A stretch of DNA of 64,000 bases from an uncultured Acidobacteriota bacterium. GTDB lineage: Bacteria; Acidobacteriota; Thermoanaerobaculia; UBA5066. The notes beneath the pieces were generated by a model. That model ran no database searches and was not told where the DNA came from. It saw only the letters and a list, made by a program, of their open reading frames with translations. The first letter of the stretch is position 1. Each line of letters opens with the position of its first letter. Positions 13,134 through 14,701 of this stretch are shown one piece after another. Made by a program: the position numbers and the translations under genes. The stretch is taken from contig CAVZYA010000002.1 of the NCBI GenBank assembly GCA_963779415.1, positions 1,408,001 through 1,472,000 of the forward strand. Reading direction: 5' to 3'.

Positions 13134-14441
13134 GACGCGGCTCCCGCGAGGGCGCGGTCGAGATCCTCGACAAGGTCCTCGATCTCCTCGATGCCGGCCG
13201 ATACCCGGATCAGGTCGGGCGTCACCCCCGCGGCGTGCCGCTCGGCCTCCGAGAGCTGCTCGTGCGTCGTGCTCCAGGGATGGATGATCAGGCTCTTGGC
13301 GTCGCCGACGTTCGCGACGAGGGAGAAGAGCCTGGCTCTCGGAGATCGTCTTTTTCGCCGCGGTCTCGCCCCCCCTGACGCCGAAGGTCAGGACGCCGCC
13401 GAAGCCACCGTCGAGGAATCTCTTCGCGCGGGCGTGGCTCGCGTGCGAGGCGAGGCCCGGGTAGCGGACCCAGGCAACGGCCGGGTGACTCTCGAGGTGG
13501 CGCGCGAGGGCGAGGGCATTCTCCGAGTGGCGGCGGATCCGGAGGTGGAGCGTCTCGAGTCCCTGCAGGAAGAGGAACGAGTTGAAGGGGGAGACGCAGG
13601 CGCCGAGGTCGCGGAGAAGGACGACGCGGAGGCGGGTCGCCCAGGCGGCGTCTCCGAACAGCTTCGAGAAGCAGAGGCCGTGATAGGCGGGCTCGGGCTC
13701 GACGAAGAACGACCGGAAGCGGGGGGCCTTCCCGAAATCGAACTTCCCGCCGTCGACGACCACGCCGCCGATCGCCGTCCCGTGTCCGCCGATCCACTTC
13801 GTGGCCGAATGAACGACGATGTCGGCTCCGTGCTCGAGGGGCCGGCAGAGGAGCGGGGTGGCGAAGGTGTTGTCGACGACGAGCGGAACACCGGCCGCAT
13901 GGGCGATCTTCGCGAGCGCCGGAAGATCGGGGACGTCGAGGTTCGGGTTCCCGATCGTCTCGACGTAGACGGCGCGCGTCGTGCCGTCGATGGCGGCGGC
14001 CACGGCCGCGGTGTCGTTGATGTCGACGAACCGCGTCGTGATGCCGAGGCGGGGAAGGGTGTGGGAGAAGAGGGCGTGCGTCCCGCCGTAGAGCGTCGAA
14101 GAGGAGACGAGGGAGTCTCCCGCTTTCGCGAGGTTCAGGATCGCGAGCGTTTCGGCGGCCTGGCCGCTCGAGGTCGCGACGGCCGCGACGCCCCCCTCCA
14201 GATCGGCGATCCGCCGCTCGAAGACGTCCGTCGTCGGGTTCATGATCCGCGTGTAGATGTTCCCGGGCTGCCGGAGGCCGAAGAGATCGGCGGCGTGCTC
14301 CGGAGAGTCGAAGACGTACGACGTCGTCGCGTAGATCGGGACGGCCCGGGAGCGCGTCGTCGGATCGGCGGCTTCCTGCGCCGCGTGGACGACACGCGTT
14401 CCGGGCCGGAGGCGGGACGGGGCGGTCCGTGCTTCGGACAT
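13130..14441 (-). CDS. metY: O-acetylhomoserine aminocarboxypropyltransferase/sulfhydrylase (frameshifted near 13335)
   Basis: [38 protein letters not shown] (PLP Lys). C-terminal [18 protein letters not shown] is in the shifted frame. Confidence 0.93.
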
Positions 14442-14482
14442 CGGGTTCTCCTTTTTCCTCCTGGCCTCGCCCGGGGAGCCGG

Positions 14483-14517
14483 AAAAACAAAACCGGCCCC
14501 TTTGGAGAGGGCCGGTT
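14483..14517 (-). terminator. Intrinsic terminator/attenuator hairpin upstream of metY
   Basis: Minus strand AACCGGCCCT-ctccaaa-GGGGCCGGTT followed by TTGTTTTT, ~40 nt before the metY ATG. Confidence 0.85.
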
Positions 14518-14561
14518 GAAGTTCGCCGGTCTGGCCGGCTCGTCGTGTCTCTTAAGGCTCG

Positions 14562-14663
14562 TTACGCCGCGACACGCTCCTCCCTCTCCGCGCGGGAAGC
14601 GCTGCACATCCACATGGACATCTCCATGCCGATGAGGGTGGAAAGGGGAGCGATGGCGCTCAT
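14562..14663 (-). CDS. Met-rich leader peptide (33 aa) of the met operon
   Basis: MSAIAPLSTLIGMEMSMWMCSASRAEREERVAA*. Four internal ATG codons at 13/15/17/19. Lies between the promoter and the terminator. Confidence 0.8.
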   Translation of the reverse strand: MSAIAPLSTLIGMEMSMWMCSASRAEREERVAA

Positions 14664-14672
14664 GATCGACGG

Positions 14673-14701
14673 AAAGTAGACGCCGGGCGGAGCGTTGTCA
14701 A
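14673..14701 (-). promoter_or_regulatory. Sigma70-type promoter of the met leader/operon
   Basis: TTGACA (14701-14696), 17-nt spacer, TACTTT (14678-14673). Leader ATG starts 10 nt downstream. Confidence 0.8.

Follow-up and report, generated by a model that had tools for sequence, protein, structure and literature searches.

A conserved leader with methionine and cysteine codons upstream of metY in Acidobacteriota, a probable ribosome-mediated transcription attenuator

In the stretch of 64,000 nucleotides (nt) analysed here (the window; positions 1,408,001 to 1,472,000 of contig CAVZYA010000002.1 from an uncultured Acidobacteriota bacterium), the gene metY on the minus strand is preceded by a short open reading frame (ORF) that carries a tight cluster of methionine (Met) codons and an adjoining cysteine (Cys) codon, and this ORF is followed by an intrinsic terminator. 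The arrangement is probably a ribosome-mediated transcription attenuator, which, judging from sequence comparison, would sense the charging of the transfer RNA (tRNA) for Met and probably also that of tRNA-Cys. An earlier note, made from the sequence of the window alone, had proposed that a Met-codon leader ORF and a terminator control the metY operon, and this core of its reading has held up, because the leader is conserved in 31 of 31 leaders of the family, two apparent sister attenuators of the same build exist in the genome, and there is no Rfam match to a riboswitch or T-box. The ORF, its frame, the codon cluster, the spacing from promoter to start codon, the terminator and the gene context are all seen in the sequence and in its comparison with relatives. 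The elements that define the leader in the window are the following:

14696-14701, minus strand: -35 hexamer TTGACA, read from the sequence
14673-14678, minus strand: -10 hexamer TACTTT, after a 17-nt spacer from the -35 hexamer
14562-14663, minus strand: leaderless leader ORF of 33 codons, with ATG at 14663 and stop codon at 14564-14562
14604-14627, minus strand: cluster of regulatory codons M-E-M-S-M-W-M-C, with four for Met and one for Cys
14481-14517, minus strand: intrinsic terminator from the hairpin scan, with a stem-loop at 14517-14491 (10 pairs, 7 of them G-C) and a T-run to 14481
14448-14453, minus strand: Shine-Dalgarno sequence AAGGAG of metY, kept in the family alignment

The promoter, which the earlier note had described as TTGACA-N17-TACTTT, reads exactly so, and the TACTTT site is absent from the list of a simple consensus promoter scan. 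The terminator, the Shine-Dalgarno sequence and the metY ATG likewise follow the leader ORF where they had been placed. The near-leaderless ORF of 33 amino acids (aa) and its coordinates stand as well, in agreement with the ORF list, but the distance from TACTTT to its ATG, given before as 10 nt, is a gap of 9 nt. The ORF encodes the peptide MSAIAPLSTLIGMEMSMWMCSASRAEREERVAA. Its Met codons start at 14627, 14621, 14615 and 14609, which is the alternating series of four described earlier for 14627-14607; the Cys codon follows directly at 14606-14604. Cys codons had gone unmentioned, and they are kept together with Met in 30 of the 31 leaders, so that the cluster has to be described as one of Met and Cys codons.

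The pattern ATG-N3-ATG-N3-ATG-N3-ATG occurs 6 times in 4.36 Mb when both strands are counted, and the other five occurrences lie, by eye, inside long frames. BLAST finds no second copy of the leader in its own genome, and a scan of the genome for Met/Cys-rich stretches gave 55 matches, among which no other similarly clustered short ORF was seen, with the context of a few short frames left unexamined. The same scan contains a 33-codon frame with three consecutive Met codons near window position 22979 (G000:C2:1430979, minus strand). Among sequencing runs, 22 are listed, of which 20, all from metagenomes, contain part of the window with a best share of words of 0.48, and contigs were obtained from runs X1, X2, X19 and X20. 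The two RNA runs match metY alone, in its conserved stretches and with 90-95% likeness, and yield nothing on the leader. The leader is spanned, at 14393-14788, by a DNA contig from X1 (record 7) that has 12 substitutions and 1 gap; 10 of the 12 substitutions are listed, and the four Met codons are untouched by those 10.

The conservation that carries the argument was established in the family of the organism. Of 61 genomes searched, 32 have MetY orthologues at E<=1e-60; these are found in 31 of the 36 other genomes of the family and in none of 24 genomes of two sister families (0/17 and 0/7; the sister-family counts and the leader BLAST tally over the 61 genomes include the unpublished genomes G037 and G042). 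DNA upstream of metY is covered in 31 of the 32 MetY genomes, which belong to 9 genera (G016, with metY at a contig end, is left out). By BLAST, the leader is found in 7 of 7 other genomes of the genus at 73-78% identity, and partial matches occur in two further genera. At the level of its parts the leader is kept throughout: all 31 leaders have a promoter of the form TTGACN-N17-19-TANNNT (30 by scan, plus G011), a start codon 7-12 nt past the -10 hexamer (24 ATG, 7 GTG), an ORF of 23-56 codons and a cluster of 3-6 mostly alternating Met codons. As the start codon lies only 7-12 nt past the -10 hexamer, there is no room for a Shine-Dalgarno sequence and the mRNA must be leaderless. A hairpin (free energy, dG, of -18 to -30.5 kcal/mol) with a T-run lies 35-61 nt after the ORF stop in 30 of 30 leaders, and in G011 it is recognized by eye.

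Besides M-E-M-S-M-W-M-C of the window, the cluster, in which Met usually alternates with Cys, takes forms such as I-C-M-C-M-C-S-M-S in one genus and M-S-M-S-M-P-M-C in another, and a Cys codon is present within the cluster or 2 codons on either side of it in 30 of the 31 leaders. The leaders contain 10.3% Met and 5.3% Cys, compared with about 0.7% each in a rough background of long stop-free frames, many of which are spurious in such GC-rich DNA. The positions between the Met codons are variable (C 26, S 21 and P 9 times, plus nine others), and this free variation is as expected if only the Met codons matter, the Cys codons excepted.

The strongest single result is that the frame itself is conserved. 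Among ATG, GTG and TTG triplets located 3-16 nt past the -10 hexamer, 31 of 32 are in frame with the Met cluster, a count that could be inflated to some extent, as the promoters were chosen partly for a Met-containing ORF after them, with the selected promoter being the sole such site in most regions. The distance from the start to the cluster takes 15 distinct values from 24 to 102 nt, and every one of them is a multiple of 3. Inside the leader ORFs, ATG triplets are in frame in 125 cases and out of frame in 3. A chance origin of this pattern is very unlikely, and the conservation of the frame strongly argues that the leader ORF is translated. The alignment of related leaders that had been proposed as a check on the Met cluster and its reading frame has therefore come out in favour of both, in 31 of 31 leaders and 9 genera.

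The Met leader is also not alone in its genome. A scan of the 4.36 Mb with the pattern TTGACN-N16-19-TANNNT, followed after 5-12 nt by ATG or GTG and an ORF of 8-70 codons, gave only 7 sites, and 4 of these combine an enriched residue with a hairpin and T-run, the Met leader being among them. Directly before ilvD (G000:C2:1667650, plus strand; L142:91-330) lies a leaderless ORF rich in leucine, valine and isoleucine codons (...GVVLLLSGVIVLVLTG...) with a terminator, and ilvD is followed by a thiamine-pyrophosphate (TPP) enzyme that resembles acetolactate synthase and whose frame is run together with that of ilvD. This unit looks like a branched-chain amino-acid attenuator that is built like the Met leader. 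The second unit (G000:C1:1048328, minus strand; L141:3129-2990) has a leaderless 26-codon ORF with six threonine codons (...RTTIRKTTPT...) and a terminator, and the genes after it are asd and an aspartokinase with ACT domains, by which it looks like a threonine attenuator on the common aspartate pathway. The fourth site, with three histidine codons before lexA, is probably unrelated. By the ilvD and asd units, the organism appears to use leaderless leader-peptide attenuators generally, with the Met unit as one of a set.

The Rfam scan that had been suggested for excluding a riboswitch found no family at gathering score in the 64-kb window, hence no riboswitch or T-box, and at E<=10 the region 14380-14800 gives only chance-level matches to unrelated families. 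The S-adenosylmethionine (SAM) riboswitch SAM-I is absent from the whole genome, in a search in which the positive controls matched.

Beyond the ORF and the terminator, the attenuator requires RNA segments with alternative partners, and the following candidates can be recognized in the window:

14640-14651, minus strand: segment 1, GCTCCCCTTTCC, pyrimidine-rich, at codons 5-8, partner of segment 2
14576-14589, minus strand: segment 2, GGAGAGGGAGGAGC, partner of either segment 1 or the terminator 5' arm
14544-14576, minus strand: nested helix CGTGTC (14576-14571) / GACACG (14549-14544), which encloses the leader stop codon
14525-14539, minus strand: small hairpin GCCGG-CCAGA-CCGGC, which follows the leader stop codon and precedes the terminator

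In the proposed mechanism, transcription would start at or beside the ATG of the leaderless 33-codon ORF. With plentiful Met-tRNA, the ribosome would pass the Met/Cys cluster and reach the stop codon, segment 2 would re-pair with segment 1 or remain under the ribosome, the hairpin 14517-14491 would form, and RNA polymerase would halt ahead of metY. When Met-tRNA or Cys-tRNA is scarce, the ribosome would stall on 14627-14604, between segments 1 and 2, and block the closure of helix 1:2. Segment 2, purine-rich and now free, would pair with the terminator's 5' arm and loop while the 3' arm is still to be made, and transcription would proceed into metY, the kinase gene and metX. What we infer in this scheme is that the leader is translated, that ribosomes stall on it, which structure serves as antiterminator, and that the system responds to Met or Cys.

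The folding calculations are consistent with much of it. The leader has a minimum-energy fold of -99.9 kcal/mol (z -2.7; 2 of 200 shuffles are equally stable), which includes the terminator and the helix 1:2 that the earlier note had pointed out. The pairing energies in the leaders are -24 to -39 for segment 2 with segment 1 and -16 to -30 for segment 2 with the terminator 5' arm and loop, where in the window the sequence CCCTCTCC at 14511-14504 provides the complement to segment 2. Stalling was modelled by removing the RNA up to 15 nt past the A-site codon and ending the transcript before the terminator 3' arm. When the ribosome is placed on the Met codons of the window leader in this way, the minimum-energy fold is the antiterminator, and it contains the CGTGTC/GACACG helix nested inside it as had been described. 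Over the family, this model gives a mostly paired terminator 5' arm in 25 of 30 leaders when the ribosome stalls at the middle Met codon (median 0.62) and in 27 of 30 when it stalls at the last (0.68), compared with 3 of 30 when it has reached the stop codon (median 0.31) and 13 of 30 when the RNA is free. Segment 2 starts 2-18 nt past the last Met codon in the family leaders, and in G006 its nucleotides are unchanged despite a 1-nt indel that shifts the leader frame; since the nucleotides are kept although the reading frame differs, the conservation of segment 2 acts on the RNA.

An alignment of 10 sequences gives a graded picture of the helices. The structure of the terminated state has 88% and that of the read-through state 82% of its cells paired, compared with 37-58% for slid partners, a control that is biased toward the tested structures, because these were drawn from the window's own sequence. 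In helix 1:2, where 90% of the cells are paired, both sides have changed in 4 of 8 pairs, and in the nested helix, with 76.7% paired, this holds for 3 of 6; helix 2:3 shows such two-sided changes in just 1 of 8 pairs. The terminator is 99% paired without any pair variation. For helix 2:3, column-wise covariation across genera was dropped in favour of energy-based tests, because segment 2 is a sliding GGAG-type repeat and the registers of the MAFFT alignment differ. In the small hairpin before the terminator 74% of the cells are paired, and all 7 folds printed for other lineages have a counterpart with different stem sequences; possible roles for it are those of a pause signal, of a spacer or of a part of the antiterminator junction.

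Several observations weigh against the attenuator as just described, and most of them concern its antiterminator. Beside the scarcity of changed pairs in helix 2:3, equilibrium folds of the full leader contain the terminator in every ribosome state (median P 0.97), and its probability is less than 0.5 in none of the 30 leaders when the ribosome stalls at the last Met codon and in 4 of 30 when it stalls at the first. This dominance at equilibrium means that read-through would have to be kinetic; in the trp attenuator, too, the 3:4 helix is more stable than the 2:3 helix. A complement to the terminator arm after the Met cluster reaches <=0.05 against mononucleotide shuffles in only 6 of 30 leaders, and across 11 lineages cognate pairs of segment 2 and terminator only slightly outperform swapped pairs (permutation 0.057), with the pair of G011 ranking last. 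In the window, segment 2 is 13 nt away from the stop codon, so that a ribosome at the stop codon would barely cover it and termination in the replete state would have to rely on re-pairing of 1:2 or on timing. Starvation for Met should moreover limit the initiation at the leader itself. The supply of Cys need not depend on MetY, as the genome has cysK and a cysE-like gene, which leaves the Cys codons without an evident reason in the model; neither a Cys nor a Met leader is found upstream of cysK or the cysE-like gene. Outside the family, the Gemmatimonadaceae locus L059 shares the family terminator sequence, and its homologous cluster (320 to 90 nt upstream of metY) reads I-C-R-P-C-P-C, with three Cys and no Met, in an ORF that starts about 40 nt past the promoter; this leader may be a Cys-only or decayed variant.

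The weakness of the 2:3 pairing statistics and the equilibrium dominance of the terminator leave some room for a different control by the same parts. The leader ORF and the terminator could be real while control is exerted without a 2:3 antiterminator, through another structure, Rho and polarity, the translation of metY, or a protein or small-molecule factor. Leaderless polycysteine ORFs of mycobacteria, as far as described in the passages considered of the work on them (10.1101/834739), act on translation and not on termination, and a SAM riboswitch upstream of a Met/Cys ORF at two loci outside the family, L058 and L130, indicates that other inputs exist elsewhere. Such a control is nevertheless unlikely here, as in all 31 leaders a strong hairpin with a T-run separates the ORF from metY, segment 2 is kept as RNA at its fixed place behind the last Met codon, the kinetic fold model fits, and Rfam gives no match. 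For the transcription attenuator with a 2:3 antiterminator, the outcome is therefore divided: the complementarity between segment 2 and the terminator, which the earlier note had seen, and the ribosome-masked kinetic fold agree with each other, but the pairing is not clearly above chance and the terminator wins at equilibrium. By the fold models, the specific 2:3 pairing is plausible and would act kinetically.

Two further explanations give the cluster a role other than that of codons on which a ribosome stalls. According to the first, the ORF encodes a functional Met/Cys-rich micropeptide, for instance a metal- or redox-active one, that is merely co-transcribed with metY, and the alternating Met and Cys residues do resemble metal-binding motifs. 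However, the peptide is unconserved between genera outside the cluster, it ranges from 23 to 56 aa, and its tail is in a changed frame in G006. Six leader peptides searched against Pfam and NCBIfam matched 0 families at E<=10, named leader-peptide families included. A terminator follows every leader, and the sister units carry the cognate codons of their own operons, all of which makes a micropeptide very improbable. Hardly more credible is that the spaced AUG triplets, which repeat every 6 nt and whose self-complementary CAUG allows the cluster to fold into a hairpin, are a protein-bound RNA motif (cf. TRAP with GAG/UAG) or part of an unclassified riboswitch, since a binding motif need not keep the frame of a start codon located at the transcription start, yet 31 of 32 starts share the frame of the cluster and each of the 15 spacings is a multiple of 3, and the leader has no Rfam match as a riboswitch.

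The genes that the attenuator would control serve the synthesis of the sensed amino acid, a metY (PF01053), a kinase gene (PF00696) and a metX-like gene (PF00561), and the 908-codon "ORF" at 11715-14441 consists of these three genes run together:

13133-14441, minus strand: metY, of the O-acetylhomoserine sulfhydrylase type, a Cys/Met pyridoxal-phosphate enzyme (Pfam PF01053, E 9e-112), with a frame break near 13331-13340
12380-13121, minus strand: amino-acid-kinase family gene of about 250-280 aa (PF00696 in two frames, plus tblastn pieces), frameshifted between 12978 and 12748
11339-12377, minus strand: metX-like alpha/beta hydrolase gene of the homoserine O-acetyltransferase type (PF00561), frameshifted near 12240

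The operon metY-kinase-metX that had been named earlier is thereby confirmed in its three genes, but each of them is frameshifted in the window, and the kinase gene is missing in G003, a genome of the same genus, where metY (436 aa) is followed by metX and then by a convergent ftsK. By tblastn, metY falls into the pieces 14441-13341 and 13330-13142 in different frames, and the metX of the window is 83% identical to the intact gene of G003, in two frames. Most likely these breaks in metY, the kinase gene and metX are indels of the assembly, and the genes no pseudogenes, because in one short-read DNA contig from X1 a base is missing at 13339, exactly at the frame break of metY, and because the metY orthologues of relatives are open. 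No ACT domain was seen in the kinase-family gene of the window, which could encode a feedback-insensitive aspartokinase under the control of Met. On the other side of the leader, the divergent neighbour on the plus strand (window 14796-16262) is a formyltransferase with Formyl_trans_N and Formyl_trans_C, the domains of methionyl-tRNA formyltransferase; the ORF has about 150 extra N-terminal codons, and its true start may be further in. In four relatives of the same genus for which the upstream stretch is printed, a co-directional gene ends where the window has the formyltransferase.

Leaders of this kind are not confined to the family. The earlier note had looked to related Acidobacteriota, and these do carry analogous leaders, but the nearest named MetY proteins among the matches listed, at 74-75%, come from metagenome-assembled genomes (MAGs) of Gemmatimonadales and Gemmatimonadaceae. 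Judged by these names and by the family terminator that L059 shares, the lineage of the window would more likely be Gemmatimonadota than Acidobacteriota. A MetY profile sample provided at least 80 named loci, of which 78 were scanned on the sense strand, within 500 nt upstream of metY, for clusters of at least 3 Met and at least 4 Met plus Cys codons within 8 codons. Such a cluster is present at 12 of the 78 listed loci, compared with 2 of 78 and 1 of 78 in two downstream control stretches. The downstream stretches were used because the antisense upstream strand is a poor control: CATG is a palindrome, and 5 of its 7 matches are the same loci as the sense matches. The qualifying loci include Gemmatimonadales (L058, with nine Met codons), Acidobacteriaceae, Terracidiphilus and Terriglobia with clusters of the types MAMCMCM, MHMCMCM and MAMCM, Eisenbacteria (MRMTMCMTMAMCMC), a gammaproteobacterial MAG (CMAMCMCM), Acidimicrobiia (MAMGMCM), Chloroflexia, and a doubtful case in a Geobacteraceae MAG (L099). 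A script finds a hairpin with a T-run after 7 of 11 Met/Cys loci, to which L075 and L086 can be added by eye, with an interrupted T-run.

Riboswitches occupy the same position at other loci. SAM-I (RF00162) is found upstream of metY at 16 of 80 listed loci and SAM-II (RF00521) at 1 of 80, and among the 12 loci with a cluster, riboswitch and cluster occur together only at L058 and L130. At the Gemmatimonadales locus L058, SAM-II (610-684) stands before the Met/Cys ORF and metY, and in Acidimicrobiia SAM-I stands before them at L130:801-889 and also at L131:952-1034. Where a riboswitch and a Met/Cys ORF are arranged in tandem, this order may indicate a two-input control.

Two further groups of metY loci have their own features. 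The Gemmatimonadales loci L062 and L063 have in common an apparently structured element about 400-250 nt before metY that ends in ...GCTAAAGCGCC and has no Rfam match at gathering score, and it is followed by Met/Cys-rich ORFs (M-S-C-R-R-A-M-C-C-R-M... and ...L-M-C-C-C-I-P-C...). In L060, L064, L065, L067 and L068, from MAGs of Chloroflexia and Limnocylindrales, a short cluster of Met or of Met and Cys is followed by a leader tail ...RPR-x-AEDGV and then by a strong terminator; the shared tail is probably the mark of a conserved stretch of RNA comparable to segment 2.

Taken over all these loci, it can be put forward tentatively, as a proposal that falls a little short of being probable, that there is a large, multi-phylum and as yet unclassified class of sulfur-amino-acid attenuators. 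They would be mostly leaderless, would read both tRNA pools by interleaved Met and Cys codons, and would be a main means by which Gemmatimonadota, Acidobacteriota, Chloroflexota and further soil lineages control their direct-sulfhydrylation (metY) operons, in some cases stacked behind a SAM riboswitch, so that SAM and Met/Cys-tRNA would both be inputs.

The regulation of Met genes in bacteria is usually explained by repressors of the MetJ/MetR type, SAM riboswitches and T-boxes, and leader-peptide attenuation is usually listed for tryptophan, histidine, leucine, threonine, isoleucine/valine and phenylalanine, Met not being among them. SAM riboswitches and Met T-boxes share the position and the job upstream of metY, but they sense SAM or uncharged tRNA without translation. 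The classical leader-peptide attenuators are those of the enterobacterial trp, his, leu, thr, ilv and pheA operons, and the window resembles them in having a short ORF rich in codons of the end product, a proposed set of mutually exclusive helices 1:2, 2:3 and 3:4, and a terminator before the first structural gene. The mixed-codon (multivalent) leaders of thr and ilv are a precedent for the combination of Met and Cys. Unlike the classical systems, the leader in the window would sense Met and Cys, lies on a leaderless mRNA without Shine-Dalgarno sequence and belongs to a different lineage. Its codons alternate and do not form runs, they sit in the loop between segments 1 and 2 and not inside segment 1, and its segment 2 lies inside the ORF. 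The Rfam models of the classical attenuator leaders have no match in the window.

Met leader peptides have been proposed before, and the closest cases are known here from passages of the respective papers. In Campylobacter jejuni, Porcelli et al. 2013 (PMC3847290) suggested as a Met leader peptide the product of a 20-aa ORF with 3 Met codons, called MetL; it sits upstream of metBA, on a short RNA whose end comes shortly past the stop codon. Initiation peaks in a Ribo-seq preprint (10.1101/2022.11.09.515450) indicate that MetL is translated, and the preprint has another Met-rich ORF before a D-methionine transporter. Unlike the leader in the window, MetL was found among ORFs of 5' untranslated regions with a ribosome-binding site, and the range given for it in these passages is a narrow one, C. 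jejuni together with C. coli and C. doylei. In Streptomyces lividans, Droste et al. 2021 (PMC8079986) gave the leaderless 29-aa ORF metL, which ends in ...ARCMCRRMCAF, the annotation of a Met-dependent attenuator. It is like the window in being leaderless and in having a mixed Met/Cys cluster, but according to the passages considered it precedes the metNIQ importer, its authors found no typical intrinsic terminator, and it is described for a single genome (PMC8079986).

The mycobacterial polycysteine ORFs mentioned above are leaderless too, sense the charging of tRNA through codons of a sulfur amino acid and control the operon behind them, and reporters showed them to be Cys-responsive translational attenuators (Canestrari et al. 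2020, 10.1101/834739). In the same passages they differ from the window by consecutive Cys codons without Met, by masking of the Shine-Dalgarno sequence with no involvement of termination, and by their Cys-related genes. For Actinobacteria, the passages considered of Seliverstov et al. 2005 (PMC1262725) report no RNA regulatory structures for Met operons. A phrase search of the literature for a methionine attenuator or Met leader peptide returned nothing relevant and one unrelated match, and searches with strings of the leader peptide returned only noise from oligonucleotide chemistry. In the literature passages covered, there is neither a demonstrated Met response of a Met leader peptide nor a comparative description of this widespread type of metY leader (the supplements of Porcelli et al. 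with the MetL sequences lie outside this scope). The earlier statement that no characterised Met-codon attenuator is known stands insofar as these passages hold no demonstration of a Met response, but Met leaders had already been proposed with the MetL of C. jejuni and the metL of S. lividans.

The type of mechanism is thus a known one and Met versions of it have been suggested before, and what is unusual is the specificity for Met and Cys, the leaderless build, the conserved Cys codons and the breadth across phyla. The finding raises the question of multivalent sensing of two sulfur amino acids, and also the question of how a Met sensor copes with needing Met-tRNA for the start of its own translation. 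The leader provides a simple signature for the control of metY that annotators can use, and a family-wide Met/Cys attenuator would close some of the gaps in the regulatory map of soil phyla that have been little studied.

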